This document shows, piece by piece, positions 4,877-62,668 of a stretch of DNA of 64,000 nucleotides. The notes beneath the pieces are model-generated. The model worked only from the letters and a program-made list of their open reading frames with translations. It did not search any database and was not told the DNA's origin. Made by a program: the position numbers and the translations under genes. The number at the start of each line of letters is the position of its first letter. Within the stretch, counting starts at the first letter, position 1. Source of the stretch: a virus; the IMG/VR virus record IMGVR_UViG_3300009605_000020, positions 1 to 64,000 of that record; one strand, given 5' to 3'.

Positions 4877-7800
4877 TTAATCTACGAATGAGGCTCCCGT
4901 TCTTGTAATATTAAAGTCAAGAGCAATATATTCTATAGCACGCGTCGGCTTCAAAAAGATCTTCGCGTAGAGTATATTGCGGTCGATCAAATCAGCAGTT
5001 GTCGTACTATCATCTAGCACTAACTTATAATCAGATAGGCCAAAATTGGTCTTAACTTCTTCAAGGAAGGGATTAACTTGCCCCGTGAAACGATCCCAGG
5101 TCTTACGTACGTTCGGCTCGAACAGAATCTGACTCGCAATCTGAGAAATTCGCTTCTTGAGGAAGATCAATAGCCGTCGAACATTAATTCGATCCAACGC
5201 CGAAGGTGTAACTTGTAGCGTCTTCTGACCGAAAATTACTAGACCTTCCGCAGGGAACTTAGCAATCGGATTAACATTAGCCTCGTATAAATCATCCCGC
5301 ATCTTCCGCGTCAGCCGTTCAACCACATTAATGATTGGTACGCCGGCAGCTCCTACAGTAAGACCGCCTCGGTTAAATCCGGCCGGTGCAAACCATACCT
5401 CTGTTTTGCGTTGAGAGCTAGAGAAAACTCCAAGTGCCGCTATGGATGGAGGCGCCCACAGAATTTGTCCTGTGATGCTATCTCGCATCTGTACCCAAGG
5501 ATAGTAAGCACAAGCATAGCTTGTATTTACGCCCCTGTCTCGCAAGTCACTGACTGTCCTGGTGACGCTGCCGCGACGATCCGCAAAGCTGTCAGTATTT
5601 TCAGTCGTTGGAATATAGCCACCCTCAAGGTCGACTACCGCTAACGAGTCGCCGCGATCCTCACATGTATTCATGAGGTGGGTGGTAAGCCCCGGCTGAG
5701 TAATGCCCGGTACGGTGGCCAGATTCATTTCTACGACCTCTGGATCTGCGATTGAATCAACGGCTCGCTTAACACTATAGAAAGCATAGTTCCCAAATTC
5801 ACTTGGATTGTTGTCCAAGTCTGTATTATTAAACGGTTCCGGCTCTAAAATATCCAAGCCATCGAACCCGCTGTGAATCGGTATTGTAAACCGATCAAAC
5901 CCATCATCGAGAACGCTCTGCCATGTGCCTTGAGCAGTCAAGGAGGCGCCCGCGACGCGGGAGCCACTTACCCATACAGCATTGTTAGTCCCGCTGCCGC
6001 TGATATCATCAAGAGTAAAGACCGTCGAGGCTTCACATCCATCTGCCCCGGTATTAAATTGGTTAGCAGCACCAATTCCGCCCAAGGCTCGTAATAAATC
6101 TATATTTGACCTCTCAAATCGTAAACTCGATGGAGAGCGTCCCACCGCAAAGCCAAAGTAGGCATCAGTAAAGTTACCTATACCGCCATCTGAAGCACTT
6201 ATGCGCATCGCTGGGGCTGGGAATCTTATCGAAGCTGATAAACTTCCCGTCTTGCCGTGCACCAAATAGGTGCCATCTGTGGCACCGCCTAGGTCGACAA
6301 CATCAAACGCCGATCCAGTTCGACCAATATACGTACTACGTGGCCCGGAATTATCCGAGAAGAACACGTCAGCATATTTAACTATGCCGCGGGATCCGAA
6401 GGGAAGCATCTGCGCGTCGGGTGGGCCGCCCAGATCGACAGTAGAATCCATCTCAATGCGAATGTATTTGGATTGATTAATATATTGTCCATCTTCTTGA
6501 TAGCGTCGTTCGTTATCATTCCAAGTGCTAACTCGGTCACCGATCTTTCGTCCTACATAATTTAAAGAATTCGGATTTAAGTTACAATCATTAAATTGTT
6601 CCACGACTCGAACCACATTATCTGAATCGTCTAGTTTACGAACTTTCACGGTGAAAGTGCCATAATCTGTAGAGTCGTTTGTTGAAGCCTTGATACTCTC
6701 TATCGAAATCTTAAGGTTTCGACTAGTCCAGGCACCCGGCTCATCCATGGCATGGAATCTAAATAAGTTAGGCATGTTGGCCGGATTATAGGTGCCGGCA
6801 TTTGTACTAATGTCCTGACTAAAGATCCACGGAGTTTGAGCAGAAATCAAGGGATATTCTAAATTGCCCGCATTGTTGCCGGTCGCGGCGCCGTTGCCTA
6901 CCATAGGTAGCAGAGCAGCATAGGTAGTATCTCCTGAAGAAGCGCCAACTACGGTCTTAAGGTGCCTTTCATAAGACTCTCCAAGCCAATAAAATAGCTC
7001 ATCTTGAGTAGTCTGGGCATTTGTTAATTGAGGATTTGTATTAAAGACTTTGCGAATATATTTTGAACTATTTTCGTTAAAATTAAAAGCAGTTACTAAA
7101 TTATTGGTACCATCATAATTCTTAACAATTAATTTATACTCGTAGTCTCCGATTGATTCAATAAGACCGCATGTACCGGTTACCGCATTTGAGGTTCCCG
7201 CAAGAGTTCCAGTGAGAGCCAAGTTGGGTCCATTTGAAGAGCTTACAACATAAAATGTTGCTGCCAGAGCGCCGAAGACTTGGGAGCTGTCGTCTCTTCC
7301 TCCCGTAAATCCGGATACCGAAGCACTTAGATGATTGGCGGTTTCAACCTTGATGAGGGCGTTGTTGCCGGCGGCGCTGCACTCGTGCATCCTAAGCATT
7401 ACCGTGTCTGCGGCGCCCGGTATGTCGGACGCGAAGCCTACTACCTCGACGCCGGGCTGGCCGACTGCATCGTGGAAGCCGGCAGCTGAGTCTGTATTAT
7501 TTGTTCCTGAAGCAAAAGTTATTAGTCCAGGGCCCGGGTGTGGAGGAAGGACCGCGCCGAAACCGGGGCCCGGGCTGAACTCCGACCGATATCCGGTAGA
7601 AGAAGTTATTGCGAAGAAATCAGTACCAATTGGTAATGAACTCGAAGCTGGGCCGGGACCGTCAAAGACGATGCTACCGGTGGCCTGGTTACAGCACGGA
7701 TTGCAGGAGCCCGTATTAAAAACGAACAGCCCGTAAACGCCCGCACCGTTGCTATTGTTAGCACTGTCTACTGTCCAGCCCGCGTCTCCGGTGATAGTTT

Positions 7801-8134
7801 TATCGGAACTCTCGGCTCCCAGTAGACGTACATAAGTTAAAGGAGAACTATTTCGAAGATAAGCTTGCGCTGCGTAAGGACCATAGGTGGGGCCCACTGT
7901 GTTGCCGTCGCGCCAAATATCACTGTTTTCGCCACCGCCACCAGGAACCGGGTTACCGAATACACTTATAAATTCCGAAAACGAATTTAGTGTAACGGGG
8001 CGTAGGCCGGGACCTGAACGGGCGCGCCCTATTACGACCGGCCCTATCCCCGCTGGGGATGCCGGAAGCTGCGAGTTATCAATTTCATTAATAAAAACGC
8101 CAGGTGAAACAAACCTATACTTCTTAACTGACAT
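4877..8134 (-). CDS. gp18: Contractile tail sheath protein (T4 gp18-like), enlarged
   Basis: N-term FVSPGVFINEID. C-term YYPWV, WFAPAGFNRG, NPIAKFP...FGQKTLQ...SALDRINVRRLL, FEPN, KPTRAIEYI. Confidence 0.95.
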   Translation of the reverse strand: MSVKKYRFVSPGVFINEIDNSQLPASPAGIGPVVIGRARSGPGLRPVTLNSFSEFISVFGNPVPGGGGENSDIWRDGNTVGPTYGPYAAQAYLRNSSPLTYVRLLGAESSDKTITGDAGWTVDSANNSNGAGVYGLFVFNTGSCNPCCNQATGSIVFDGPGPASSSLPIGTDFFAITSSTGYRSEFSPGPGFGAVLPPHPGPGLITFASGTNNTDSAAGFHDAVGQPGVEVVGFASDIPGAADTVMLRMHECSAAGNNALIKVETANHLSASVSGFTGGRDDSSQVFGALAATFYVVSSSNGPNLALTGTLAGTSNAVTGTCGLIESIGDYEYKLIVKNYDGTNNLVTAFNFNENSSKYIRKVFNTNPQLTNAQTTQDELFYWLGESYERHLKTVVGASSGDTTYAALLPMVGNGAATGNNAGNLEYPLISAQTPWIFSQDISTNAGTYNPANMPNLFRFHAMDEPGAWTSRNLKISIESIKASTNDSTDYGTFTVKVRKLDDSDNVVRVVEQFNDCNLNPNSLNYVGRKIGDRVSTWNDNERRYQEDGQYINQSKYIRIEMDSTVDLGGPPDAQMLPFGSRGIVKYADVFFSDNSGPRSTYIGRTGSAFDVVDLGGATDGTYLVHGKTGSLSASIRFPAPAMRISASDGGIGNFTDAYFGFAVGRSPSSLRFERSNIDLLRALGGIGAANQFNTGADGCEASTVFTLDDISGSGTNNAVWVSGSRVAGASLTAQGTWQSVLDDGFDRFTIPIHSGFDGLDILEPEPFNNTDLDNNPSEFGNYAFYSVKRAVDSIADPEVVEMNLATVPGITQPGLTTHLMNTCEDRGDSLAVVDLEGGYIPTTENTDSFADRRGSVTRTVSDLRDRGVNTSYACAYYPWVQMRDSITGQILWAPPSIAALGVFSSSQRKTEVWFAPAGFNRGGLTVGAAGVPIINVVERLTRKMRDDLYEANVNPIAKFPAEGLVIFGQKTLQVTPSALDRINVRRLLIFLKKRISQIASQILFEPNVRKTWDRFTGQVNPFLEEVKTNFGLSDYKLVLDDSTTTADLIDRNILYAKIFLKPTRAIEYIALDFNITRTGASFVD

Positions 8135-8188
8135 ACTGGGAGATCTCCTTTTTCAAATCTCTTTAAACAACTTAATGTTATTCTCTAT

Positions 8189-8196
8189 TAAATAGT
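8189..8196 (-). promoter_or_regulatory. ACTAWWTA motif (ACTATTTA)
   Basis: 54 nt upstream of the sheath start. Confidence 0.6.
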
Positions 8197-8216
8197 ACGA
8201 GCGGGACCGAACAGTC

Positions 8217-9158
8217 TTATTCTCTATAAAATCCTCTACTATCAATAGTATCTGGAATATCTCCAAAAATAGCTCGCTCTCGCTGGAATCTAAATTCCAC
8301 AGCGTTTTCTCTTTTAACTAAGCGAGGCCTCTCTTGGTTATCTCCCTCTCCAATCAAATAGCCGAGCACTGTCACGTTAATTGTGGTTTCATAATTACGT
8401 TGTGCCATCTCTAGATTGTTTGTATTACTGTTGTTCATATAATTTCCATCCAGAAAAACTTCAAATTTGTGGTTATCATATTCAATGCGAGGAGGCATAG
8501 TGCTGTTGCCAGCTATGGTAACCCACGGCTGGATAAGATCGTTCATTTGCTGTTGATATTCCGTTCGAAGACTAATTTCATAAGAAACATTAATCCACGT
8601 TGGTAGCGGAATAGTAATGGTTTCATACACTACCTTTTGAGTTGGCATGTTCCGACTGTTGGTACTTTCCATACCTGATCGGACGCCATCTGGGCCATAT
8701 CGACGGGCAGCCAAATTGTTTTGAAACTCAGCCGTTTTTTTCTGATTGATGCGGCGCGCTACAGTAATAACACCCCCTTTCTCATCGTCCACAGCATACA
8801 AATTAGCATAAGGAACTCCACGCTTGTTTGGATCTTTTACTGTCGCTTTTCTTTCAATCGTTATGAGCGGCAAAATCAAAGTTTCTTCGCGATCTCGGAG
8901 TTCTTTTCTATTTTTGATTTGGAAGGATCTTTCGGCGCTCGCCCATATAATATGCACTTTGTTAAACCCTTCATTCGTCGTAGTAAAAAGATTCATTTTG
9001 TCATTTACAAAATTATATAAAGCGTAGTCGATAGTTTCCATAGTCGAAGGCATAAAAATGACCTCTTGTAACTTATCTTGAACGTCTTTAGACCCAACAT
9101 AATCAAATCTATCTGCATATCTATTTTGTAATTGTCTTTGAGTTTCTCTAACTGGCAT
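8217..9158 (-). CDS. Tail terminator / sheath completion protein (gp15-like)
   Basis: LPLITIER, P-x-x-x-N-V-x-Y-E-I-x-L-x-T-x-Y-x-x-QMN pattern. Lies between the neck and sheath genes. Confidence 0.65.
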   Translation of the reverse strand: MPVRETQRQLQNRYADRFDYVGSKDVQDKLQEVIFMPSTMETIDYALYNFVNDKMNLFTTTNEGFNKVHIIWASAERSFQIKNRKELRDREETLILPLITIERKATVKDPNKRGVPYANLYAVDDEKGGVITVARRINQKKTAEFQNNLAARRYGPDGVRSGMESTNSRNMPTQKVVYETITIPLPTWINVSYEISLRTEYQQQMNDLIQPWVTIAGNSTMPPRIEYDNHKFEVFLDGNYMNNSNTNNLEMAQRNYETTINVTVLGYLIGEGDNQERPRLVKRENAVEFRFQRERAIFGDIPDTIDSRGFYRE

Positions 9159-9712: not shown

Positions 9713-10978
9713 CTACCCTACATATATGCCGGCCGGAATATCGCCCAACAATTTTTCAGCATTATCGCCCAAAGTGGCATCCAGTTCGGACAGCTTAACA
9801 TAAGTAAGCTCATCGAATGTTGTTTTAAGTTCCTCTCTTAGTGCATCTTGTTCTGCTTTAGCCTGAGATAAGAGTTCGCTGTGATTTAAAGTAACGTTAT
9901 CGCCCGGAATCGGAACAGTACTAAATTTACCCCTTACTTGACCCAGCATCTCTTTTGCAAGAGCTAAAGAAAATCGTCTAATCCACTGTTTTCCGATTGA
10001 ATTAATGCTGGTATAGGCAATATTTTGGAAAGGGAGGGTGTTCATATTATTAATACCTTGAACGCCCGTTTTGCTATTTGGTTCAGACTCTTCCCATGGA
10101 CTACTATCCACAGTAAAATTAAACCAAACACTTCCAGGGTATATATTGCTCGGTTGGGGGAATATTCTTATATTGTTATTTTTAATTTCATAGGACCAGT
10201 GAGAAACACGCGTATTAAGAGCATCTTCGTATGCCATGGCCTGCAGTTTATTTTGCCATACAGGAACAATATCGAAAGTTGAATCATCAGCGTACTGACC
10301 ATAGGTTCGCAGGTTGCCTACTACAGAAAATCCGCCATAATATCCATAAAAGCGCCACATCGCATTGGGAGTTTTATAATAAACCCTTCTAATAATAATT
10401 TTTTTATTTCCCACTCTTCCGAAATATGATGCAGACGTGTCAGTTGCGGCTGACGATGAAATAATGTTCTGGAGGTCATAATCTTGTGTCCCGGTCCTAG
10501 TATTAAACGAGGCCGAATATATATTGTCGGTGCCTCCGAGGCCTGTTTCTGTGATTGCTCTGTCGCTAAACCGCCTTATATAACCATAATCAAATTTAGG
10601 ATAACGAAGCTCGATTTGAGAACCAGATAGCGCATCTCCAGTCAGAATTTGACCATCCTGATCAAACGACGCTGTCGTGTGCCCTAAAAAGCTCGAAAGA
10701 GAGTTCTTAGATTGATGCACATTAACGATATACGAGTATTCTAAAACAGCTTCTTCGTAGGATGCATAAATATTTCCCTCTGTCAGTTCAATATCTAATA
10801 CATCTCCGCCCAGTTTTTTATAAGTGTAGGCAACTTGATCTGCTGCGCCGGATAAAAACTGTGTTACAGAGGCATATATCCCAAATGGCAGCGTTGTGGC
10901 TACATTAGCTTCGGAGCCAGTAGCAGGCAAAACATTTTTATTGGTTGTCGATGCGGGTCTTAGGACTGGAAGCGCCAT
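9713..10978 (-). CDS. Neck / head-tail adaptor protein (gp13-like)
   Basis: KLGGDVLDIELT, WIRRFSLALAKEMLGQVRGKF..VPIPG..VTLN...LLSQA. Follows the major capsid gene. Confidence 0.82.
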   Translation of the reverse strand: MALPVLRPASTTNKNVLPATGSEANVATTLPFGIYASVTQFLSGAADQVAYTYKKLGGDVLDIELTEGNIYASYEEAVLEYSYIVNVHQSKNSLSSFLGHTTASFDQDGQILTGDALSGSQIELRYPKFDYGYIRRFSDRAITETGLGGTDNIYSASFNTRTGTQDYDLQNIISSSAATDTSASYFGRVGNKKIIIRRVYYKTPNAMWRFYGYYGGFSVVGNLRTYGQYADDSTFDIVPVWQNKLQAMAYEDALNTRVSHWSYEIKNNNIRIFPQPSNIYPGSVWFNFTVDSSPWEESEPNSKTGVQGINNMNTLPFQNIAYTSINSIGKQWIRRFSLALAKEMLGQVRGKFSTVPIPGDNVTLNHSELLSQAKAEQDALREELKTTFDELTYVKLSELDATLGDNAEKLLGDIPAGIYVG

Positions 10979-11077: not shown

Positions 11078-12895
11078 TTAGCCTTGCATATCGGCTATTA
11101 CAACTAGACCATACATGTCAGGACGCACCATCTGCTTGGCGTACCGAGTCATGACACCCTTACGGGGCACGAAATCTTCGACACCAAAGATGGTGGGGGT
11201 TGTCTGGAGCGGTACGTACGGAGCGTACACATATCCGGACTCTAGGAAACTGCCTCCCCGTCGTCCAACCAAAACAACGTTTCGGAGGAAGTACGGGTCA
11301 ACATAGATGTCCCACTTCTTGGAAAGATTACCAACCTTAACAGCACCAGCAGTACCACGATCACTATCCACCGCTACATTAGCGCGGAAACCAGCCGTGA
11401 ACTCTAGGATGTTAGCAACTTCAGGTCCGCAGACAATAAAGTTGGCACCACCCCGGAGAGTCTTCCGGTGAATCTGGGCCGACACATCATTAACAGTCTC
11501 AACAAGAGTTTCATACCACTCACTTACATTACCGGTGAAATCAGCGGCAATCTCTAGAGGGGTACCAAGCTCACGATTGAGGAACGTACCAGGAGCACGC
11601 GACCAATATCGCAAACCAGCCGTAGAACCCTTAACGAGATCGTTAAGAATTTCACGGTCAATCTCTAGAGCAATCTGTTCAGATAGAATCTGAGTAAGCT
11701 CGACCTCGGCATCCAAATTGTGATAGGCATTAAGATCCTGTCCCAATTCTGGAGTCCACTTGGCCTTGAGCTTCTTGGTAATCGCGGTGACAGCCACGGA
11801 ATCGATCTGAATATCGATCTCGGGGATGAACTCACTACCTTCCAAGCCCCACTGAGCGTGACCTTCGACTGAGCCGAGGGCACCTCCGTTAACGAAGTTA
11901 TCTACCATAGGATAGGTAAAGGTAACTTGTTCGGCCTGCACACTACTAGTAATATCAACCGCTGTGAAAGCTCCCGGATATGACGCCACTACCATAAGAA
12001 GGTTAGCAGAGCCACGATCATTAATGGGGCCTCCCGCAGACGCAGAACTGAATCGCCAAAGACGACGACACAGAGTACCAGAGTTCCAAACACCGAAGCC
12101 GTTTGCAGTATTAATCTGAATAGCCGTAAGGTCATCCATATTGATATCCTCATCGTTGTTTGCATCCTGAATACCATCCGCGTTACCATCAGCGCCAACG
12201 CTGACAATAGGAACTTCGAAGACTGCAACAGTCGTTGAGCCAGAAACTAGATCCGGATCGTACGCCGTCAAGGTACCCAGAGTCTGAACCCCATCGGCGG
12301 CCGGGAATTGGTCGTCGTCACCAGCCGTTCCTCCAACGAGAACCGTGAAGGTTCCAGCTGCAGGGGGGCCGGCCGTAGTGTTAGATCCGGTCGGAGATGC
12401 ATAACCGTTGTTAAGACCATATGGTCCCTGTTCCGAAAATACGCCCGCAAGATCAACACCTTGGGTAATCTGCGAACCAACCACGTCGCCTCCGAAGAGG
12501 GATGTGTTAGCCGGATAACCGAGACGATCTGTCATCGTGCCAGTGGCACCGATATCAGGCGAAACCGTGAAGTCCAGGAAGAAGATCAGACCAGAAGGCA
12601 AGCTCATGGGCTGAACGCTAACGAGATCGTTAGCAATTAAATTGCCGAATACACGGCGAACGAGGGGGAATGCGACAGCCGCAAAACCCTCCACGTCACC
12701 AACAGCCATGCTGCTGGATTCACGAAGTAGCTCTTTTGCCTGATTTTCAAGCAAAGATGCCATTCCGTTTCGAAGGTGATCACTTTCAAGACCCTCTAGG
12801 AGACCGGTCTTTTCCCACTTGGAGATAAGAGCCGCGCCCTCTTTTGAGAGGTCTCGATTAATGATACCTTCGGTTAACTTTTGAACAATAGACAT
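11078..12895 (-). CDS. gp23: Major capsid protein (T4 gp23-like)
   Basis: LVRRVF..LIANDLVSVQPM..PSGLIF, KLKAKWTPELGQDLNAYHNLDAEVEL, EIDREI, YAPYVPL, F.PRKGVMTRYA. Strong AGGAGG SD. Confidence 0.96.
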   Translation of the reverse strand: MSIVQKLTEGIINRDLSKEGAALISKWEKTGLLEGLESDHLRNGMASLLENQAKELLRESSSMAVGDVEGFAAVAFPLVRRVFGNLIANDLVSVQPMSLPSGLIFFLDFTVSPDIGATGTMTDRLGYPANTSLFGGDVVGSQITQGVDLAGVFSEQGPYGLNNGYASPTGSNTTAGPPAAGTFTVLVGGTAGDDDQFPAADGVQTLGTLTAYDPDLVSGSTTVAVFEVPIVSVGADGNADGIQDANNDEDINMDDLTAIQINTANGFGVWNSGTLCRRLWRFSSASAGGPINDRGSANLLMVVASYPGAFTAVDITSSVQAEQVTFTYPMVDNFVNGGALGSVEGHAQWGLEGSEFIPEIDIQIDSVAVTAITKKLKAKWTPELGQDLNAYHNLDAEVELTQILSEQIALEIDREILNDLVKGSTAGLRYWSRAPGTFLNRELGTPLEIAADFTGNVSEWYETLVETVNDVSAQIHRKTLRGGANFIVCGPEVANILEFTAGFRANVAVDSDRGTAGAVKVGNLSKKWDIYVDPYFLRNVVLVGRRGGSFLESGYVYAPYVPLQTTPTIFGVEDFVPRKGVMTRYAKQMVRPDMYGLVVIADMQG

Positions 12896-14033: not shown

Positions 14034-15242
14034 CTATTCATCTTCCAATTGTTGTATTCTCGCCTCTAATGATTCAATGATAAGCTGCTGTTCTTTGACC
14101 GCTTCAACAAGATGTGCCATAAAAGCATCCGGAAGTCCATATGTTAATGCGGTACCGTCTGGGATTAGGCTTTCCTCTTCACCGCAGGGCAACTTAGCCT
14201 CTCTTACAAACTCCGGAAATACCTCTTGCATCTCCTGGGCGATAAAGCCGGCCGTAGCAGCGACTCCATTATGACATTCTGGCTTTTTCCACTCGTATGC
14301 TCTACCTTGAAGTTGTTGTATTTTTGCTAGCGATCCCGTAAGGTTCACTATATTTTCCTTAAGGCGCCGATCAGATGTGGAGTTGTCCCAAGATCCTCCG
14401 CCGGGCTTTCCCGCGGTTCCAAAAATTTCAAGAGCGGTGCCATCCAGTTCAAATACCTGTTCGTGAACGCCGGCCAGGATGTCCCAAATTTGGAACGTTC
14501 CGTCGCCACCGACGGCCCCGTCTGCGTTGTAGATTAATCGTGTCATGTTGCCGGTGGTGCTACTGCCCGTCCCGAGTTCGATGCGCCCATACCCAGTATC
14601 TTGGGCGCCTATTTGAGCGACTCCAAAATCGAACCACGTCTGCTGATTTCCAAAGGTAATCCCAGAACCCGAAACCTTCATCATGATGCTGGTCATTTCA
14701 GCCGTAGTAAGCGGGTTGTCGAGGCGGCCGCCGGAGGGCGACGAATCAGTTATCCGGAAGATGTCTCCGTCCCAGAAGTCGGGGACGGATGAAGAAATGT
14801 GAAGCACGGCTTCTGGCAATGAAGTTCCGATGCCAACGAGACCAGAACCGGTAACAGACAAAATATTTCCCCCGTTGCCTTCCAGCAAGAACAAGTCCTC
14901 ATGAGTGCCCGAAACATGAAGTACGGCTTGTGGTGATTGTTCGCGGATTCCGACTGCATTATCAACGCCGCTTCCGTTAGTGCTTTTTACAATAAAATTA
15001 TTCCCATAACCATTTGTTGCAACTCTGAAGTTTGTATTTTCGGAAGCATTGCCAACAACCACTTCATCAGTGCTGTCTTCATCTAACGTTAATAATTTTT
15101 TATTCCCAACATAAAAAGTAATTTCATCTTCAACCGAAAGATCAATATAAGTGTCGGCGTCATTTAATCTTCCTATCCTATCTGATACATAGAGTTCCCC
15201 ACTAAGGTTCAGGGTTCCACTCATAAAATTATATGCCATCAA
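14034..15242 (-). CDS. Fibre/spike protein with C-terminal intramolecular chaperone (peptidase S74-like)
   Basis: VGIGTSLPEAVLHIS-type repeats, TSDRRLKENI...GFIAQEMQEVFPEFV...LVEAVKEQQ and a terminal coiled coil. Confidence 0.82.
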   Translation of the reverse strand: MMAYNFMSGTLNLSGELYVSDRIGRLNDADTYIDLSVEDEITFYVGNKKLLTLDEDSTDEVVVGNASENTNFRVATNGYGNNFIVKSTNGSGVDNAVGIREQSPQAVLHVSGTHEDLFLLEGNGGNILSVTGSGLVGIGTSLPEAVLHISSSVPDFWDGDIFRITDSSPSGGRLDNPLTTAEMTSIMMKVSGSGITFGNQQTWFDFGVAQIGAQDTGYGRIELGTGSSTTGNMTRLIYNADGAVGGDGTFQIWDILAGVHEQVFELDGTALEIFGTAGKPGGGSWDNSTSDRRLKENIVNLTGSLAKIQQLQGRAYEWKKPECHNGVAATAGFIAQEMQEVFPEFVREAKLPCGEEESLIPDGTALTYGLPDAFMAHLVEAVKEQQLIIESLEARIQQLEDE

Positions 15243-21032: not shown

Positions 21033-21440
21033 TTAGTCGGTTAAGCCCGAACCGGTTAAATGGAACATCTGGTCGGAGGGGATATTAGTTAGCTCTCCTA
21101 TAGCCGTATATGAAGTACTGCCGGAGTTAGTAAGTGGTGCAGAAATAAATATTTCTCGACACTTGACTCCAAATGATACACTATCATTGTTGCTGTTAAG
21201 CGCTACAAAATGTAACCCACCAATAACATTTCCGGAACCAGTAGCATTGAAGTGAACTAAAACATCATCGTTGCTGGCATCGGTATTAATAACTGTTACC
21301 GATCTGACTGTTCTAGGGAATACAATGCGATCTTCAGATCCTGGCGTTAGCGCGGTGGAGCCCGTTATCCATGGAATTCCTGATACCTGATATGAGCCTA
21401 CATTAAATAGTCCCGGCTTCATGTGGTTATACGTGGTCAT
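21033..21440 (-). CDS. Small structural protein (hypothetical)
   Basis: 135 aa, beta-rich, GLFNVGSYQVSGIPWITGS. First gene of the fibre cluster after an ACTAATTA motif. Confidence 0.65.
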   Translation of the reverse strand: MTTYNHMKPGLFNVGSYQVSGIPWITGSTALTPGSEDRIVFPRTVRSVTVINTDASNDDVLVHFNATGSGNVIGGLHFVALNSNNDSVSFGVKCREIFISAPLTNSGSTSYTAIGELTNIPSDQMFHLTGSGLTD

Positions 21441-39607: not shown

Positions 39608-39615
39608 CGCATTCC

Positions 39616-55800: not shown

Positions 55801-58800
55801 GTCGCTTGGTTCCTACGTTTCGTAATAGATTTCCTTTTGGTCGATCGAATAAGTAGGGAGGCGAAACAGCTGGAGCATTCGGGGATGGATACTGGGGATC
55901 AACTATTCCTAGAGCACCAGACGTTTCATTTGTATATGTGGAAGACGTAATTTGACAAGTTAAATCCGTGCCTCCGCCGGCGACTGCAACGTCAGCAGGA
56001 GTAAGATCGAGCATATACTCTGGACAGGATACGGGGATAGTGGCAGGTATACCATCGCATTGGAACGATAGTGAAGTGAGCGGCGGTTCTGACGCGGCAT
56101 CATCAACATTCAAAAGCGTATCTCCCGGACTATCACCAAATCTGTACCACGACATTAAGCCGACACTTAACCCGGCTGAAGCCGTTAAATTAATGGGCCC
56201 TGAAGATGTTACAGCAATTTCTTTCTTTTCAACGGTCAGGAGAGGCGATATCGTGGTACAGGTAGTCGTGGTTTCTCCGCCGACTCCATAAAGCTCAAGG
56301 CATTCTGCGTCCGAAAGCTGTCTGTCCCATATTGCCTGATCGGCAAAAGCACCACTATGAAAAGTCGACTTTACAGACCAGCCGCTGTAGGCGGCAATAT
56401 ACCAGGCTCCAACACTACCGGCGCCGGTGGTGCCCACCAGATTACCAGCTGGAGTTTGCCAAGTAGAAAAGCTTGCGCTCACTCCGTTAATAAAAACATT
56501 AGGAGGTTGCGATCCCGAATTATAAGCAGTAACAATATGATACCAGCCCGGGCCTTCTGTCAAATATTTACTAGAGGTGAGCGGTACATCCAATACCCAC
56601 TCGGCGTCAGTCGGGCCTCCGGCGCTATATTCTGCACCAAAAAATAATCTCATACCGGCCGGCGAGGAGGCGGTACCTATCGTACGTAGACGTTTGAAAC
56701 CGGTACCCGCGCCCTCGTTTCCGAAGCTCCATATGCCGCTGGCGAGGCCCTTATCAAGCAGCTCTGAAGAGGCCGAGACCCACGTCGATACGGTGAACTC
56801 ATCGGATGAGCCATCAAATGCACCCGCAGACATATACCATCCGGTATTAAAAATATGATTTGTGCAAGGCCATTTGCATGCGGTCAATATTTTTTTACTA
56901 TTAGCACCAATATTACTAGAAGTTACCAAGTTATAGGTAGTATTTACCAACTTTCGGTCTGTACACATTCCCAGAAGCAGTTTAAACCCTTCCGGTCGAT
57001 CTTCAACATAATCTAGATTATTCGGGCCCTTCTTAAGTGCATCGAATTTGTTTAACGCGACGTGACGATATTCTCGTCCCCCAACATATTGTTCGGTAAA
57101 CGGGCCCTGGAGAGGACTGCCATTCAGTTCGCCATAAATATCATTATGAAGATCGGTTATCATAACCCCTTTCATAAATCTTTCTCTTACAGTCTGATTA
57201 TATCCTGTCGCGACTGAACTGCTATATAAATTAAATGGCGCCAACAAATGCCCCTTGGCCTCTTGATAATCAAAACTTCCTGACTGATGTTTATTAATTC
57301 TAGCATTTATACCCCAGGCCAAGCGCTTCTTTTGATTTGGAGTGATGATATCGGTGATATCTTTAAGAGTTTCCACATCTTTTTCAAAAGTCAGCATAAC
57401 ATTGGCAGGAATGTTCATGCCTTTTATAAGTGGGCCGGCAGGATAAGTGGCGGGGAATACGAAATCCCATATTTTATTTGGATATTGGCCGCGAGGATTC
57501 CCCCCAGGCAATTGTAACGGTCGAGAAACAGAAAGTTTATATGGCCTAGAATCGGCACAGTTGTCATCCCAAAACTGGGATCGGTCGTCGGCGTACCCTG
57601 GTCGCTGGGGGCCGGCGCTCTCGAAGATCTTCTCCCGGGAAAAATCAACCGCAGCATCGCCCGAAGCAAGAGGGGGCTTCAGCCGGGTAGCGCGGTCCTT
57701 CCACCAATACGCATTGGTACTTTGGAGGTTGTTGAGTGGGTGATGATTAAATTTCCACCCTCCCAGGGGATCTAAAATATTACAAATTCTACCTTCAATA
57801 ATAGGATCTTTGGTATTTAATGTTGGGAATTTACTATGATATTTGTTTCTCTCTAAAATATGACTCTCAATCATGGTGCGTATATTCTGAGCTACATCCG
57901 CTGATGCTGGAACAAGTTGTTGCAACATTGTTGAGAGAGAAGAATCAAACCACTTATAAAATTCATAGAATTTATCAAAGTCTATAGTACTATTTTGGAC
58001 ATTTAAGAAAAAGGCCTGTCGGACCTTTGAAAGATCTTTGTAGTCCATTCGATAGCGATTCACTGGTGCACCTATCAAGGTGTGCATATCGCGTATAGTG
58101 GCAAAATAATTTATCATCTCTTCGGAAATAACTTGATAAAGGCTCTTTTCGAAAGAGAAGTAGAACGTTACAGGGCGTGTTGCGGGAGTAAATTCTTCTT
58201 GTTCCTCGGAAGTTAAAACAGAAATCATATCCACAGACCGTAGATTCTCGGGTAGATTTTGTCTAATATTTACAATATAATCTTTATCGATCGCTGTCGT
58301 AGAATTTGCCCCGAAGAAGTCGCCGCGGCCCGTATGTTGATTATTTAATATGGGGCCTAGCCAGTCATATCGAGAGGCGGCTAATTGAGTTGAACCGGAT
58401 GAAAGATCGGCTACAGAGAATTGACCACTAGAGTTAGAGCCGGTATTCTGGTTAAAATCCCAATTCAGAGCCAAAGTGTCTAATTCAGGTATTTCTCCGA
58501 AAGAAGCTTCCGGTTGGAACGGAAAAGCGTACCAATGAGGATTGGATGTGCCACAATTAAAAGCATCGTTCGCGTGCTCGGTAAGAGTCGTATCATCTAA
58601 ATATGTTAACCAGTGGCGAGCCGCGGCCACCTTAACATCGGAGAACTCAAGCACAGACCCTGTAAAATTCTGTCGGTGCGATCCAGCAAATAATCTTTTT
58701 CGATCCGAAATAAAGCCGGCTGGCGGAGAATTGATAGTACCGCTTAAAGTAAAGGTATCCAATACAACGCCATCTTGAACGTGAGTACCCCGCAATTCAA

Positions 58801-61192
58801 CTATATAATCGCCAGCAACAGAACTGGTTACAAAATTTTCATATGGATATTTTTCCGGTCGTACGCGAACTGCCAAGTTCCATCTAGTATTATTATAAAC
58901 ATCCTCGTAAAGATCGCTTTTTAGAAGCGGCATACTGCCGCCAGCTGTGCTCGTTAGTACAAAACGAACATTCGGAGACCTAAGCTCATCACGAACAGCA
59001 AATACTTGGAAATTACTTTCATCGAGTGCAGTCCAAGTAGTGTCGGCGCCGTTGGGAAGCGCGCTATGCATTCCGAATATTGATGCTGAAATAAAATTCC
59101 TACTTATATAATAGGGATGACTCTCGGGCGCCTTAATGGGCATCACCAAATCTACTTCGGTAGTAAAAGCAAATCCGCCAGTTAAATTAGTTGATCCGGT
59201 TATAAAAGATACCGAATTGGCGTTGCTAGAGTCAAGGAATTGATAGACCGATCCCTGAATGTTTTCTATCGTGTTGAAATCAACAAACTTTTTGGGTTCG
59301 ACAACTGCGCGCGCATTGTTTCGATACTCGTACTCAATATTGTTAGCATATAAATTAAATTTAATCAGCTCGTCATCAATTCCAAAACAACGAATTAAAT
59401 TGCGAAATGCTTTTTCAGTACCTTTAGACTTATAAATATAATTGAGATTATTATAGATATTTTGATATATCGTATTCTTAATATCACTCAACGACTTATC
59501 ATAGATAAGATCTTCACTTCGATCCGCTAATTTTTCTAAAACATCAGCATCTATAAAAAGCTCTGGCGACACAAGGCCGGCTGATTCTAAAAGCCTATTG
59601 GCAAAGGGGAGTGGTTTTTGGCTCCCATGGGGATAAGTGATATCTTTTAACGTATTTAAAGATTGAATTTGTAATTGTAGCGTATCAAAATAACTTCCCA
59701 TTATTTGGGCTAGACTCTTTAGTTCTCCAGAAGCCTCCTCGTCCTCTTCTAAAATCCATCCCGGAATTGAGTTATATATGGAAGCGTTATTTTGAATATC
59801 GTGCCGAGAGCCGCTACCTTCTAATTTTGCCTCCAGAGCTACTACCGCCGGATGGAAAGAATATATTATAGGATCTTTAAACTCTTTTATGGCCGCTCTA
59901 GAAATAACTATCGCAGATCCAGTATTTCTTGAGTTGGAAGTGTAACCAGTCCAGGTACCGTTTGAAATGCGCCCAGAGTAATCAAGCACCATTCTATCTG
60001 TAGAATCAATGCCCGTAATTCCTTCATTAAACTTATAATAAACGCCCAAATCTGTATTTACCAAATTAGTAGTATCTACACCGGGAGCTGGGTCCGAATT
60101 GGTTCCTCCACCTACTTGCGATATCCAGTATCGACCTATATCTTTAGAGCTTCTTTGCTTTTTCCAATATCGGAATTCATCCAATGAGGCGGATAACTTA
60201 CCTGCTCCCATCATTGCCGCCGAGCCAGATGGGCTTGTAATTAGCGCGCCAATATGTGCTTTAAGAGTCCCGGTGATCTGGTTAATACCCACTGATCCGA
60301 GCGTTTGTTCGTTGTTTAAGTCACCATTAACATAAAATTTAGTATTAACGCCGACAGAAGTGGATACACAAGTAATTGCATAATGATGCCAATTGTTATC
60401 AGCTACCGAAGCGGTTGTTAGAGTTGCACTCCCGATGGATACATCTTGAAATCCCGTTGTTCCTGAAAGTATCGTGAGCCTAAAAGGATTTAATCCATCG
60501 GTGGCGCCAGTTAGTTCTATGCTTAGGCGCCCGTAATCAACACTGGAAGATAACTTGTTGTTCCAGAGATCAAAAATAACTTCTTTTTCGGTAGATCCGG
60601 TTATAAATTGATCTTTCTTGAGCCAGAATTCAACTGAAACACCTTTGTCACGGAGATTAAACTCCAAATTGGAAGCTCTATTCTTTGCGGGATCCCAATA
60701 GTTTGACCCAGTAAACTGAACCATAGGATCCGACATACCATGCGGATTTTGATTGGGGCCTCCTATAAAAGAAATATACTCCCGAGTAGACGGAGTTCCA
60801 TAGCCATCAGCAGTTATAGGACCACTAGAAGCACCCCATCCATCAGCAGATAAAATAATAAATCCGTTAGTGCGAGGATATTGATTATCTAATAAATATA
60901 GATCTATATAGGTGGAATTATTTTCCCATTCCAATTTTTCTTTAAGAGAGCCGTCGTAGGGATAGGTGCCATAGACCCTTCCAATAGAGGCTTTGTAATA
61001 CTCTGCGGCCGACCCATAATAAGCAAAATTTTCTGGTCGTGAAAAATCTATTCTCGGAATAAATCTGTCTTCGTGTATTACATCTTGTTCGTGATACCCA
61101 ACAGACTCAACCTCAGAGGCAAGCTGCTCCTCGCTCATGTCAGAAATATTTTTTACACTGCTAGCAAGTTTATAGGTATCCTTCAAGCTCAT
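49889..61192 (-). CDS. Giant (3767 aa) baseplate wedge-like (gp7/P2 gpI-like) protein with multiple LamG/concanavalin-A domains
   Basis: YKSKGTEKAFRNLIRCFGI wedge motif. LamG patterns: SVEFWLK..WHHYAIT..FYVNG..LDEFRYW; FTVSTWV..WYHIV..FINGV..DQAIWDRQLS; WTHLAITYNG..MYIDG..DASFWN. Confidence 0.72.
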   Translation of the reverse strand: MSLKDTYKLASSVKNISDMSEEQLASEVESVGYHEQDVIHEDRFIPRIDFSRPENFAYYGSAAEYYKASIGRVYGTYPYDGSLKEKLEWENNSTYIDLYLLDNQYPRTNGFIILSADGWGASSGPITADGYGTPSTREYISFIGGPNQNPHGMSDPMVQFTGSNYWDPAKNRASNLEFNLRDKGVSVEFWLKKDQFITGSTEKEVIFDLWNNKLSSSVDYGRLSIELTGATDGLNPFRLTILSGTTGFQDVSIGSATLTTASVADNNWHHYAITCVSTSVGVNTKFYVNGDLNNEQTLGSVGINQITGTLKAHIGALITSPSGSAAMMGAGKLSASLDEFRYWKKQRSSKDIGRYWISQVGGGTNSDPAPGVDTTNLVNTDLGVYYKFNEGITGIDSTDRMVLDYSGRISNGTWTGYTSNSRNTGSAIVISRAAIKEFKDPIIYSFHPAVVALEAKLEGSGSRHDIQNNASIYNSIPGWILEEDEEASGELKSLAQIMGSYFDTLQLQIQSLNTLKDITYPHGSQKPLPFANRLLESAGLVSPELFIDADVLEKLADRSEDLIYDKSLSDIKNTIYQNIYNNLNYIYKSKGTEKAFRNLIRCFGIDDELIKFNLYANNIEYEYRNNARAVVEPKKFVDFNTIENIQGSVYQFLDSSNANSVSFITGSTNLTGGFAFTTEVDLVMPIKAPESHPYYISRNFISASIFGMHSALPNGADTTWTALDESNFQVFAVRDELRSPNVRFVLTSTAGGSMPLLKSDLYEDVYNNTRWNLAVRVRPEKYPYENFVTSSVAGDYIVELRGTHVQDGVVLDTFTLSGTINSPPAGFISDRKRLFAGSHRQNFTGSVLEFSDVKVAAARHWLTYLDDTTLTEHANDAFNCGTSNPHWYAFPFQPEASFGEIPELDTLALNWDFNQNTGSNSSGQFSVADLSSGSTQLAASRYDWLGPILNNQHTGRGDFFGANSTTAIDKDYIVNIRQNLPENLRSVDMISVLTSEEQEEFTPATRPVTFYFSFEKSLYQVISEEMINYFATIRDMHTLIGAPVNRYRMDYKDLSKVRQAFFLNVQNSTIDFDKFYEFYKWFDSSLSTMLQQLVPASADVAQNIRTMIESHILERNKYHSKFPTLNTKDPIIEGRICNILDPLGGWKFNHHPLNNLQSTNAYWWKDRATRLKPPLASGDAAVDFSREKIFESAGPQRPGYADDRSQFWDDNCADSRPYKLSVSRPLQLPGGNPRGQYPNKIWDFVFPATYPAGPLIKGMNIPANVMLTFEKDVETLKDITDIITPNQKKRLAWGINARINKHQSGSFDYQEAKGHLLAPFNLYSSSVATGYNQTVRERFMKGVMITDLHNDIYGELNGSPLQGPFTEQYVGGREYRHVALNKFDALKKGPNNLDYVEDRPEGFKLLLGMCTDRKLVNTTYNLVTSSNIGANSKKILTACKWPCTNHIFNTGWYMSAGAFDGSSDEFTVSTWVSASSELLDKGLASGIWSFGNEGAGTGFKRLRTIGTASSPAGMRLFFGAEYSAGGPTDAEWVLDVPLTSSKYLTEGPGWYHIVTAYNSGSQPPNVFINGVSASFSTWQTPAGNLVGTTGAGSVGAWYIAAYSGWSVKSTFHSGAFADQAIWDRQLSDAECLELYGVGGETTTTCTTISPLLTVEKKEIAVTSSGPINLTASAGLSVGLMSWYRFGDSPGDTLLNVDDAASEPPLTSLSFQCDGIPATIPVSCPEYMLDLTPADVAVAGGGTDLTCQITSSTYTNETSGALGIVDPQYPSPNAPAVSPPYLFDRPKGNLLRNVGTKRPVNVQNIQMTTGSTILGNYRMNYDVVQSNARSINDLFFREQSFDFSLYPLTVHHKLDNSRPPLALSGDRVVNTKAIELDDQPPGLRKYWSWSGSAPEIAYMNANTAETWQAWINLTASGQTNILFQDSDGVHAGDNFDTRRIKTDPNNKVIFLAKWDGGGTTAEWESPASAIPLNKWTHLAITYNGSSTSNSPTMYIDGAPVPVTEVVTPVGTIDPYVMSSAYIYIGWHTGENWAGYVSDASFWNTTLTSDQANKLYSQATLNLLGGELIAVRSNLIFWFRMGDGPGDSIAGIANIVGGASADLVHVGTPPGIIVDINPQACTRFGDKFALPNRDGRNSNQTIFVNKFSAPGGYEVQSRGYLEPAHEEVSPYNALPFRNRSVIDYGLSGSASVDPLAAQTITVVDQIGKNRGRNQRLTLHCGQFGHDAAYGTIPTDTYVTVPSYHKVNRNTKYRMETGSYFTASVYDNGWVTHPIPQSDRQYAWITASLTTGTMMLGYMGLSGGLPQSWPTIPESEVYSVETNNPGWRFWGQRIDSATWISMLGPTTGIPTDFVGLNTIVADPLDSSAQTLGYPSMSLERSGLVYKSNYINSTINYGIAPGNGFGVSYLSPDETTGPGGILNSILLNRGGPYGWPTWKQIRTRQHPVVRYQREHNILSQRDEPLPIYVGDYATAQQMKGLKGNTFKQYIEQPISSRHHALEFAFEGGQWNNIPGVPDAYNQMWASAPGTPIPPDNSVVAKVSWGNNIDYFSHQRLDNRLDLVPNVTFGQPYETLVNFALDASLNNSADSLIEYTERIYPREVNAYRTRTRTREEYSTDQIWLTPRGRRSQNPGFFADFRLNAVGTNVPNASMWPLDAHYPFSSMLADISQSTLPILGWGGTGFSAGELQNRYTRFGTYQGCLWQRANIAPGPLYNMRVFVGSGSSPGSGMGICDPVWGGDTYWDAPVQAGKDPYQPYEEYAEFIRLKGKDHTIVPEFRISEHIENLVINHNSDWLTDLDETTGLFDLTGGEVPEGEGGVVPGTQTDIIANSSQNNFYSVYGHTDFLKYFKVIDDDLNNKNINEGMRLKRKEIQLGCSAYIKFLPYKGFYPAERAAALTGLFSSSYFPHVESSFSSSVTGWQHTTAGPETRGAMRPLLEPLFAPGILFNTIKSGIAVSSFVIFNTSSTPKWDIGLVPKGESILDINAGSGGPSDLAGTKIATSTVWTTLPEGTINFGVRYSSSLNPQLNQNNFTPPASWWPPATPGGWYVNYLDAQGGYGFQRIPFEAMIKPSAYFGVNSISGAYIYDNGLPPSASFRQDQDPTKYKYRVGWNGMGSSLYELAIDNFLCETLNFFQDDTFGHMANFVSAREDEFASVTSGSYYAMTVDLRRPIINPGGDTTGSGQLVTIPDRSKFEMYERASAFGPPFAGNAYAGAFNCISPGSACAWEANFDPLTPSYYDGHGRATILFKAQYSGKPALSDILATSEFMYARSNNTADPLSIEAWGVHGPSAGSVWQQHIDQNVNLAETLISVPPDTDSNQDRWLIQSKFETPVLNFSKYTVSGSAASASITLPPNSLVPGYPHPLAPTTDTLSKKIISKGMWHQYGDIPAGGETIELSVDTPSYINSPTHGVLEEDNINSLASVVKFNTGSPKPVGNLRRQQTLAEAIIVVPFTVNQFGTRRSFFKLTEDMHGPGQASYLRCVDILRRYILPPKFDFVTNPASTGPTMTTELNPLSPVNSTGGPTMTTRLNPLSPVNSTGGPTMTAQLDPLSIGAGGSPTTISPEKILFYAFEFSVSISRQDLADIWQNLPPNIGTQFQKPDPLFIREKNLIDEMYNPETTLRWLVFKVKKRAEKDYNVFVKKNLTTDLATIPPNIESKYSYNWPYDYFSLVELVKIDTTVQYSPETAAQMMLDPNLGQDLLFPPSLGSGTPPLNILGQPYGSLPSKEPPSMRAPSLPLWMSPSRSMSSSGALRSVQRILQMMTKKRKI
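50543..50686. repeat. 54-bp tandem repeat (about 2.7 copies) encoding GPTMTxxLNPLSPVNSTG
   Basis: agtcatagtcgg... units start at 50564, 50618 and 50672. The two full copies are near-identical. Confidence 0.9.
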
Positions 61193-61195
61193 TTT

Positions 61196-62668
61196 TTATT
61201 CTTCTACTCTAAATTTAAATATCTCTGGTTGTTCCACCCATGCTCCGATGCTGTCATTGTAATAGGATGCCTTGATACCGTACATGTATTGAGCTTCCAA
61301 CAATGATATGTCTAAATCAAAATAATTTCCGTCTACATCATAGGACATATAAGTGCTCAAATCGCTTCCTGTTCCGTACGGTATTACATTTAGCTCGTCT
61401 GTTAACCTCACCACCTTATAAGACGCGCTAGCTATGCACTCGTTTGGAATTGTGTTCGTCGCCACGACATACATGTTAGGATCCCAATTCCTTTGTCGTA
61501 TAAAGAATCTGAAGCGTGCTGTCTCTTCTCTAGAATAGTTTGCCCTTAAGTTGGTTAGCGCTGTTATATAATTAAAGGTCGGGGCACTATCATAGGTCGG
61601 CACTAATTCGGGATAAACGGAGCCTGTTAAAACTTCTCCAATACCACTGCCAACTTCCCAAACATCATGAAGTGCTGTTAATGGGGTGGCCGCCGCAGTC
61701 ATAGCTAACGAAGCAGAATATATTCCCGTACTTACCCGTCCAGCTGTGGTTATGTAGCCTATGCCATCGATCGGTGAATACAGACGCAACATAGGTCCCG
61801 TCGGGAGGCCGGCCGAACTAGAGTACATTCGAACAATGAGGCCGGCGCCGGCGTTGGGAATATCTACAAGTCTACCTCGAATATAATTGTAATAATACAA
61901 AGTGTTTAAGTTATCGGCTGCTGGCGCCAGAGAGCTACTATAGTAAAAGTCGCATCGATTATCCTGGATACGTGAATCCCAGCGAGCTTCCACTACTGGC
62001 CGTTTAAAGAAAAATTCCGAGGATCTGGCAAAAAACTTCTTTGTATAGTATGACCTTGGGGCGGCCTCCTCTCCGGGAATCAGCCGAATCCCCACACCAT
62101 TATTGCCGCTAGTATATGTTCCAGCTACCCAGTCTTCTACAACGGTTGATATATCAACCGTCAGATCTTCCCAGCCCTCCCGAAAATGAGAGGTATATGA
62201 AGGATTAACTAAATAGTTTCCTCCGGTATTAGCCCATGGCCCTGTAGATCCGCGACGCATCCAATTAGATCCGGTCCCCCCATATGTGAGATCTTTATAT
62301 TCTTCCATATCAAGACCTGATCCCTCTTGCCATGATTGAGAAATGGGAGATATGGCTAATGTAAAATCGCGAGCTAGTGTAAATGGATGTTCTGCATTAT
62401 ACATTTTAAGATAAAAACTAACATTACCAACGCCTGGTATGTTTCCTGCCGCGCGATCTGCCACAATGTCCTGTACTGGGAAATTTATTAAAATTCTGGA
62501 CAGCTCTGAGCTTTGTCCACTGCTAGATGAAACTTGTCCATAAATTGAAAATACTTCTAAGCTGTCGGCGGCCCCCATATTGGATCCTGTGCCGCGCATC
62601 GTTAAATTTGCTTCAAAAGCATTCGTTATTGTATTGTCAGCATTAGCTACATATCTTTTAATTGCCAT
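61196..62668 (-). CDS. Structural protein with DNRLRE-like N-terminal domain
   Basis: ADNTI...N.G....LEV...SRILINF...FYLKMY...SWQEGSG...VDISTVVEDW...NNGVGI...FFARSS...P.VEARW. Confidence 0.55.
   Translation of the reverse strand: MAIKRYVANADNTITNAFEANLTMRGTGSNMGAADSLEVFSIYGQVSSSSGQSSELSRILINFPVQDIVADRAAGNIPGVGNVSFYLKMYNAEHPFTLARDFTLAISPISQSWQEGSGLDMEEYKDLTYGGTGSNWMRRGSTGPWANTGGNYLVNPSYTSHFREGWEDLTVDISTVVEDWVAGTYTSGNNGVGIRLIPGEEAAPRSYYTKKFFARSSEFFFKRPVVEARWDSRIQDNRCDFYYSSSLAPAADNLNTLYYYNYIRGRLVDIPNAGAGLIVRMYSSSAGLPTGPMLRLYSPIDGIGYITTAGRVSTGIYSASLAMTAAATPLTALHDVWEVGSGIGEVLTGSVYPELVPTYDSAPTFNYITALTNLRANYSREETARFRFFIRQRNWDPNMYVVATNTIPNECIASASYKVVRLTDELNVIPYGTGSDLSTYMSYDVDGNYFDLDISLLEAQYMYGIKASYYNDSIGAWVEQPEIFKFRVEE

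Follow-up and report, generated by a model that had tools for sequence, protein, structure and literature searches.

An order-specific Ser/Thr tripeptide on exterior virion proteins of far-T4 phages, a possible O-glycosylation sequon

Our data reveal a short protein word, [ST]-[GAS]-[ST], that is overrepresented in an order-specific manner in the exterior virion proteins of an uncultivated virus (IMG/VR record IMGVR_UViG_3300009605_000020) and of most members of its lineage, and that may serve as an acceptor site for O-glycosylation. The analysis started from positions 1 to 64,000 of this single 78.4-kb contig (the window). Judged from its gene content, the window holds a divergent T4-type structural module; the virus is a far-T4 marine myovirus. 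The original prediction, made from the letters of the window, was that the word saturates predicted exterior virion proteins but spares enzymes and internal proteins and that it is a candidate sequon of a virion-wide modification.

Word excess in exterior virion proteins

When 45 proteins of the window are pooled, [ST][GAS][ST] is found 223 times against 118.6 expected (z = 10.6; here and below, expected counts derive from within-protein shuffles), and the composition-preserving shuffle that the original prediction had named as its check therefore left the enrichment standing. The excess also survives shuffling confined to blocks of 20 amino acids (aa) and has a z of 9.2 in blocks of 10 aa, so local composition does not explain it. 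It is order-specific: in the 10-aa block shuffle, the permuted words [GAS][ST][ST] and [ST][ST][GAS] reach a z of just 2.2 and 1.3, and [ST]G[ST] occurs 106 times (42 expected), whereas the counts for G[ST][ST] and [ST][ST]G are flat (52 vs 42 to 50). A hydrophobic residue at position −1 lifts the ratio to about threefold (112 vs 38.5). TGS ranks first of all 8000 tripeptides (41 vs 11.9), with SAS, SGS, and SSS within the top 15.

Codons at the motif sites are used as in the background, and no 9-mer is repeated more than three times, from which it follows that the signal acts at the protein level; a DNA-level cause is ruled out, as the original prediction had held in stating that the word is no DNA repeat. 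Its further statement that the word is spread across unrelated proteins agrees with an all-vs-all BLAST, in which the enriched proteins show almost no paralogy. It is hardly credible that the excess arises artificially from composition, low-complexity runs, or hidden repeats. The enriched proteins do have a higher content of Ser, Thr, and Gly, but the excess withstands shuffling of whole proteins and of blocks alike, the permuted words stay flat, the codons are varied, and BLAST detects neither internal nor cross-protein repeats; the sites themselves are isolated, irregular in spacing, and seldom overlapping. On these grounds we reject such an origin. Two adjacent paralogues at 17172-19113 (minus strand; 302 and 348 aa, 30% identity) are as rich in Ser, Thr, and Gly as the enriched proteins yet flat for the word (2 vs 3.0 and 4 vs 4.7), and composition alone thus gives no signal.

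The excess follows the position of the proteins in the virion. For the form ending in Ser, [ST][GAS]S, 21 sheath, capsid, neck, fiber, baseplate-region, and giant proteins together hold 159 sites against 60.3 expected (z = 12.9), and the other 32 open reading frames (ORFs; tube, hub, portal, terminase, protease, scaffold, SbcCD, primase, and small proteins) hold 6 against 14.0. All long ORFs of the window, and hence all proteins described in the following, lie on the minus strand. In the sheath, the major capsid protein (MCP), and the neck protein taken together, the add-on domains carry 30 sites (11.3 expected) and the conserved cores 2 (3.7 expected). The tail sheath (4877-8134; 1085 aa; phrog_23, Phage_sheath_1C; 18 vs 8.2, z = 3.8) has 17 of its 18 sites in large insertion domains between residues 136 and 858 (7 vs 2.0 and 10 vs 4.6), none in the N-terminal core, and one in the C-terminal core. 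The T4 gp23-type MCP (11078-12895; PF07068; 7 vs 3.0) has six of seven sites in its insertion domain at residues 102 to 350 (6 vs 2.3), and its Gp23 core at residues 351 to 605 contains no site. In the neck or head-tail adaptor protein (Ad2, gp13-like; 9713-10978; 7 vs 2.9), all seven sites fall into residues 1 to 187, which include an extra N-terminal domain (7 vs 2.4), and the Ad2 core at residues 188 to 421 is free of them. The tetrapeptides quoted in the original prediction for these three proteins are all present.

The strongest single case is a fiber-like protein of 600 aa (15249-17051) without Pfam or PHROG match, in which 29 words stand against 7.3 expected (z = 8.3; about 25 had been counted by eye); the word likewise abounds in the consensus of its 18 weak homologues. 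It is accompanied by a Gly-rich protein of 590 aa (19248-21020) with a weak match to PHROG 'virion structural protein', for which the 17 words found (7.0 expected, z = 4.1) lie within the 15 to 18 that had been claimed, and by a tail fiber (14034-15242; 8 vs 2.3, z = 3.9) that matches tail-fiber PHROGs and ends in a Peptidase_S74 intramolecular chaperone (PF13884, residues 290 to 347). The giant virion protein of 3767 aa (49889-61192), said to contain dozens of words, has 57 (25.6 expected, z = 6.4), with an excess over most 250-aa windows; it carries three ConA-like Laminin_G_3 domains (PF13385), the best match being at residues 1898 to 2049. Comparable giant ORFs of 2600 to 3900 aa are the most motif-rich proteins of two relatives (G003 and G019). 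Recurrence in smaller proteins was borne out for two paralogues of 411 and 343 aa (38372-40647, with 39616 as the second start; 9 vs 3.5 and 10 vs 3.5; paralogy E = 1e-12) and for a 490-aa protein adjoining the baseplate wedge gene (61196-62668; 10 vs 3.5, z = 3.7), none of which has family matches, but not for a Ser/Thr-rich protein of 135 aa (21033-21440), where 4 vs 1.9 (z = 1.7) is not significant alone. A 230-aa protein downstream of the terminase gene (31986-32678), also without family matches, is enriched as well (8 vs 2.6, z = 3.5).

The internal and enzymatic proteins identified by PHROG and Pfam between 22669 and 37875 (a 697-aa internal candidate, protease, portal, TerL, Mre11-Rad50, and primase) have 0 to 3 sites each, at or below expectation. 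The near-absence claimed for Mre11-Rad50, primase, portal, and protease is in fact a complete absence; the scaffold has 2 sites (1.4 expected) and the tube none. The contrast drawn in the original prediction thus stood as far as the confinement to exterior or add-on parts is concerned. However, eight exterior candidates (17172, 18067, 40657, 41677, 43147, 46002, 48905, and 62668) are not enriched and a 2375-aa protein is so only weakly, and "saturates" is therefore an overstatement.

Closer inspection of the word revealed that hydroxyl residues alone are clearly favored at both outer positions. In front of G-[ST], Ser (54 vs 26) and Thr (57 vs 22) are clearly enriched and Tyr modestly (20 vs 11); behind [ST]-G, the counts are 74 vs 26 for Ser, 37 vs 22 for Thr, and 34 vs 24 for Ala, and at position 3 Ser is preferred to Thr. 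In the flanks, V/I/L are enriched at −1 and aromatic residues at −2, charged residues are underrepresented from −3 to +3, as is Asp at −1. A generic glycine beta-turn or beta-hairpin motif, offered in the original prediction as the alternative, does not fit: the turn formers N and D are at or below expectation beside Gly (N-G-[ST] 11 vs 18, D-G-[ST] 19 vs 18, [ST]-G-N 11 vs 18, [ST]-G-D 18 vs 18), and G is likewise not enriched there, a pattern that speaks against a simple beta-turn. When 58 neck and 63 MCP orthologues were aligned, several sites proved to be fixed in place (in the neck, several are retained in 51 to 58 of the 58 sequences) with a middle residue that swaps between G, A, and S, for example, TAS in 47 and TGS in 11 or SAS in 34 and SGS in 24, a misfit with an obligate positive-phi glycine. 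We therefore rejected the generic turn. Across orthologues, the site density is constant while individual sites turn over.

The word and a glycosyltransferase island in the far-T4 lineage

The word excess characterizes the far-T4 lineage and is present in the marine clade, in Flavobacterium phage immuto, in Microcystis phage Mel-JY01, and, moderately, in Rhodothermus phage RM378. Together with the huge phage LR756508, these three are the nearest cultured relatives by MCP; in the MCP tree the marine clade occupies one branch and the four named phages the other. Two scans of IMG/VR gave at least about 600 MCP relatives each (identity, 63 to 84%). Over 80 loci of such relatives, [ST]G[ST] is found 1549 times against 644 expected (2.4-fold), with the permuted controls at 1.33 and 0.95, and families that are BLAST-unrelated to the contig are also enriched (55 vs 28.8, z = 4.9), one large family dominating this count. 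In the complete relative G003, enrichment occurs in structural stretches only, with a z of up to 13.9 in a stretch of giant ORFs. The same holds for immuto, whose structural regions have 92 sites against 37 expected (z = 10; in one 20-kb stretch, [ST][GAS]S reaches 109 vs 40) and which is flat elsewhere. On the second MCP branch, 45 IMG/VR loci range from flat to a z of 9 near the MCP gene; the complete genomes G019 and G020 are flat near the MCP gene, and their giant and fiber ORFs elsewhere are strongly enriched, as exemplified by an ORF of 2642 aa (62 vs 15, z = 13.5). In G019, the stretch 136001-156000 encodes a 3866-aa ORF with an extreme wealth of Ser/Thr/Gly words; across this 20-kb stretch, the motif and the permuted controls are all raised about 2.8-fold, and the ORF is therefore probably a low-complexity repeat protein and not a carrier of the order-specific signal. 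Mel-JY01 is moderately positive (sheath, 17 vs 5.9), in RM378 a single region is moderately enriched (26 vs 8.9, z = 6), and LR756508 is essentially flat across 484 kb, its Ser/Thr-rich giant ORFs included.

In phage T4 there is no excess ([ST][GAS][ST] 98 vs 90.5, [ST]G[ST] 25 vs 30.5); its long and short fibers are flat, Hoc has no excess, and the sheath has 9 sites against 4.0 expected (z = 2.7). Cellulophaga phage phiSM also has no excess. Since T4 and phiSM are flat, we rejected the view that T4-like or fibrous virion proteins have the excess in general. We also rejected a trait of the host phylum: phiSM shows nothing and Flavobacterium phage 11b little, whereas the Microcystis and Rhodothermus phages of the lineage are positive. 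A weak general propensity for the word may exist; the 2.4- to 4-fold excess seen here is unusual.

Relatives of the virus (G001, G003, immuto, G005, G009, G019, and G020) encode a conserved pair or trio of family GT4 glycosyltransferases (GTs). The island, located at 8398-10928 of L101 in G001, 10367-12900 of L102 in G003, and 9129-19945 of L100 in immuto, was surveyed over 78 IMG/VR loci, and a scan of IMG/VR for the GT gave 270 relatives. Its order is a PD-(D/E)XK nuclease (73 of 75 loci), GT4 'A' (GT-A; 78 of 78), GT4 'B' (GT-B; 75 of 76), and a third GT4 (59 of 71), and it adjoins, besides the nuclease, PhoH. Downstream of the GT4 block follows a hypervariable region with 27 to 36 gene families per position, among them a sulfotransferase, FkbM and other methyltransferases, DegT/WecE aminotransferases, GT2, a thiamine pyrophosphate enzyme, an epimerase, and a PglB-like acetyltransferase; in the closest relative, G001, the island includes a sulfotransferase and methyltransferases. 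This layout is that of a glycan-diversity island. Both GT-A and GT-B retain the GT4 EX7E motif. GT-A is conserved like the MCP (58 to 71% identity) and occurs, among cultured phages, in the far-T4 lineage only, in phages with hosts from three phyla; its best match in the PDB is the chlorovirus glycosyltransferase B736L (E = 3e-10). The protein clusters nearest to GT-B are all viral GT4, and a GT-B profile search found strong orthologues in four of four near-complete genomes of the second branch and in Mel-JY01. In the latter (PP395634), the GT-A orthologue is divided between two ORFs (198 and 313 aa; 83444-84929), and a 1234-aa 'FkbM methyltransferase' near the terminase gene (4750-8430) contains a GT4-like domain that matches the GT-B profile with an E value of 7e-17.

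All lineages with the GT-A/GT-B pair are motif-positive, and the sole genome with GT-A only, LR756508, in which the profile search found no GT-B beyond a cross-match to GT-A, is motif-flat. This pattern is consistent with a link between GT-B and the word, as far as a pattern with one negative genome can be. Two GT-B-positive genomes are flat near the MCP gene; whole-genome scans partly restored the association.

The island might be thought to act on DNA, for which the phages of Pyle et al. are the comparison. By liquid chromatography-mass spectrometry (LC-MS), immuto DNA contains canonical dA, dC, and dT, dG is fully replaced by formyl-dPreQ1 (fdPreQ1), and sugar-bearing nucleosides are not reported (bioRxiv 10.1101/2023.04.13.536721). 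Furthermore, a thymidylate-synthase-like hydroxymethylase gene was not found in the complete genome G003. Both the base composition and the missing hydroxymethylase make DNA glycosylation, and with it such a role of the island, unlikely, at least in immuto. A search for Tet_JBP matched nothing, control genomes included, and is hence uninformative.

Acceptor site or structural feature

Our tentative proposal, which we hold at somewhat below even chances, is that hydrophobic-[ST]-[GAS]-S is an O-glycosylation sequon on the virion exterior. The word, at high density on outward add-on domains, fibers, and giant proteins, would be a short acceptor motif that is recognized by a lineage-specific factor. 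The likeliest factor would be a phage-encoded, cytoplasmic O-glycosyltransferase system, made up of the GT4 pair or trio and the hypervariable sugar-tailoring cassette, and its action would provide the virion with a glycan coat. In this model, the GTs would act on virion proteins with the word as their acceptor, and the GT island of the virus studied here would lie on the unassembled part of its genome. Near-complete genomes of relatives are 160 to 250 kb in size, and the contig is thus about half a genome or less. Specificity for hydroxyl residues and for their order, restriction to the lineage, and the flat LR756508 argue against a universal structural propensity and for lineage-specific recognition. 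The more far-reaching version, in which marine far-T4 phages have their whole exterior O-glycosylated at a minimal sequon by a virus-specific GT4 pair while the cassette diversifies the glycans in a serotype-like manner, appears rather doubtful to us at present.

Several observations weigh against glycosylation of the word. The 78-kb contig, about half a genome, encodes no glycosyltransferase. In the complete genomes G003 and immuto, non-structural proteins show no avoidance of the word, and sequon avoidance in cytoplasmic enzymes, hinted at by the low count on the contig (6 vs 14), was therefore dropped. The Ser and Thr residues of the motif are no more conserved than other Ser and Thr residues (0.65 vs 0.64). 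Association of GT and motif exists at the clade level only, with a single negative genome. RM378 has a weak N-terminal match to the GT-B profile (E = 6.5e-7) in a 435-aa ORF directly after GT-A; with this phage moderately positive and only a weak GT-B-like ORF present, a clean phyletic match of GT-B and motif had to be given up. Flavobacterium phage 11b, cyanophage S-SSM7, S-CBS4, TJE1, and Streptomyces phage TunaTartare have ratios of 1.0 to 1.65, and a mild excess of 1.3- to 1.6-fold is seen in several unrelated phages; TJE1 and S-CBS4, which encode distant GT4 homologues, show no motif excess and TunaTartare 1.5-fold, although these phages are uninformative as an independent test. The 8-mer ACTAWWTA, a candidate late element described below, is absent from the 19-kb GT region of G001 (0 vs 4.4). 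The island could act on host envelope glycans instead, and no literature on virion glycosylation in the far-T4 lineage was found. Beyond counting, the original prediction is thus supported in part: for the acceptor site, the signal is corrected for composition, lies at the protein level, is confined to the exterior, and has GTs in the lineage, but there is none on the contig, enzymes do not avoid the word, and the sites are not extra-conserved; for the co-occurrence with GT clusters, which it had named as a check, the clade-level match and the flat, GT-B-less LR756508 stand against the same missing gene and the one negative genome.

Structural data add to these objections. The AlphaFold2 (AF2) model of the 600-aa fiber is poor (predicted local distance difference test [pLDDT] score of 37) and unusable for mapping. 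The sheath model is moderate (pLDDT of 61), and in its moderately confident parts, 5 of 11 sites are in strands and 6 of 11 in loops adjoining strands. The residues flanking the word look beta-strand-like, and in the family of the 600-aa fiber the word sits within repeated units, e.g., ISSSGE and LRTSG. The word might therefore be a structural idiom without any modification, located at strand ends or short corners of beta-rich decoration domains, beta-helical fibers, and giant adhesin-like proteins, with inward-pointing residues, hydrophobic or small, at −1, +1, and +3 and both hydroxyls facing the solvent, and made frequent by the proliferation of such folds in the lineage. We consider this unlikely, but it is a serious competitor: besides the modeled positions and the repeated units, it would explain V/I/L at −1, aromatic residues at −2, and the depletion of charges, the lack of extra constraint on the motif Ser and Thr, the lack of avoidance in enzymes, and the mild excess in unrelated phages. 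Such an idiom should, however, hold in all phages, yet the fibers, sheath, and Hoc of T4, phiSM, and the giant ORFs of LR756508 lack a comparable excess. Furthermore, N, D, and G are not enriched and Gly swaps freely with Ala and Ser, which excludes a positive-phi turn; Ser exceeds Thr at position 3, unlike at mid-strand positions; and the enriched proteins share neither extended context nor BLAST homology.

It is also imaginable that the word is recognized by something other than a glycosyltransferase, as a site of phosphorylation, acylation, or sulfation, or that it provides a surface rich in hydroxyls for the binding of polysaccharides from the host or the environment. Hydroxyl specificity and exterior restriction would suit any chemistry or binding aimed at hydroxyls, lectin-like ConA domains are found in the giant protein, and the island of G001 includes a sulfotransferase and methyltransferases. 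However, no kinase or other protein-modifying enzyme turned up, albeit in the course of work that included no systematic search for one, and a binding surface would be expected to rely on composition or on ordered arrays, yet the spacing of the sites is irregular. We regard these options as improbable.

Glycosylation of the word by the phage's own enzymes would have parallels in known systems, each of them incomplete. Virion glycosylation in mycobacteriophages is reported by Freeman and colleagues (Cell Host Microbe, 2023, as cited in PMC12619734). There, as in our proposal, phage GTs reportedly O-glycosylate virion proteins in the cytoplasm and coat the particle; the glycans are said to decorate the C-terminal tails of the capsid and tail-tube subunits, with GT genes that come after the structural operon. 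In the phages described here, by contrast, hundreds of candidate sites are dispersed over add-on domains and fibers, the tube has none, the MCP sites are internal (residues 102 to 350), and the GT island is located among non-late genes and not with the structural late genes. Chloroviruses and giant viruses glycosylate their capsids with their own GTs together with aminotransferase, methyltransferase, and epimerase functions, as found in the far-T4 lineage. The glycans of chlorovirus Vp54 are N-linked at atypical sequons, whereas N-x-[ST] is not enriched in the exterior proteins studied here (138 vs 148.5, 0.93-fold), and the function of B736L itself (from PBCV NY-2A; PDB 3oy2), the best solved relative of GT-A, is unproven.

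Among bacterial systems, AAH and TibC are cytoplasmic autotransporter heptosyltransferases that act on the beta-helices of AIDA-I and TibA. They resemble the system proposed here in the cytoplasmic O-glycosylation of many Ser residues in a beta-rich surface protein, at a short strand-loop-strand motif and without a long sequon; they differ in being heptosyltransferases and not GT4, and in modifying repetitive 19-aa units of one protein instead of many unrelated proteins. GtfA and GtfB of the serine-rich repeat (SRRP) adhesins are an adjacent, cytoplasmic paralogue pair of GT-B type with Ser-small-Ser acceptors such as SAS. GtfB is a non-catalytic partner of GtfA, whereas both members of the adjacent phage pair in the relatives keep EX7E; long Ser-rich tracts of low complexity are the acceptors in SRRP, in contrast to the isolated sites here, and neither GtfA nor GtfB was among the PDB sequence matches of GT-A or GT-B. 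The general O-glycosylation system of the Bacteroidota, the phylum of the probable host, also uses a three-residue sequon, D-[ST]-[AILVMT]. That system is periplasmic, however, and its sequon is not enriched in the exterior proteins (64 vs 55.6, 1.15-fold, z = 1.4), with Asp depleted in front of the word as stated above.

Should the word turn out to be a glycosylation sequon, tailed phages would have their first O-glycosylation code that is virion-wide and defined by sequence. The lineage in question is common in marine and freshwater metagenomes (as judged from the numbers of relatives in the IMG/VR scans, at least about 600 by MCP in each and 270 by GT), and such a code would account for the conserved GT pair that is kept beside a hypervariable sugar cassette. 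Glycan coats could influence adsorption, stickiness of the particles, grazing, and antibody recognition. Since immuto (vB_FspM_immuto, with Flavobacterium sp. LMO8 as its host) is in culture, the idea of glycosylation is directly testable. If the word is purely structural, it is still a strong, lineage-specific signature of exterior domains that is useful for the annotation of unknown virion proteins.

Further features of the window and the contig

In addition to the proteins treated above (sheath, Ad2/gp13-like neck, gp23-type MCP, and S74-chaperone tail fiber), PHROG and Pfam searches identified in the window a baseplate hub, tube, prohead protease, portal, TerL, a fused Mre11-Rad50 (SbcCD), primase, and baseplate wedge, besides many unknowns. 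The 8-mer ACTAWWTA occurs 30 times in the window (12.4 expected), mostly on the gene strand and in intergenic gaps upstream of late genes, for example, at 568, 3140, 4840, 8189, 10994, 13978, 17113, 19129, 21468, 33739, and 41649. It is also overrepresented in the structural locus of G001 (9 vs 1.8) and may be a late promoter element.

Past the window, at 73216-77143 of the contig, are three tandem paralogues of 420 to 450 aa, none of them motif-enriched, that are 46 to 51% identical over a common N-terminal domain of some 190 aa and diverge afterwards. The SbcD/SbcC fusion of the window (33774-36929, minus strand; 1051 aa) is a single ORF with an SbcD/Mre11-like nuclease at residues 1 to 272 and an SbcC/Rad50-like ATPase at residues 329 to 1050, whereas T4 has the separate proteins gp47 and gp46.

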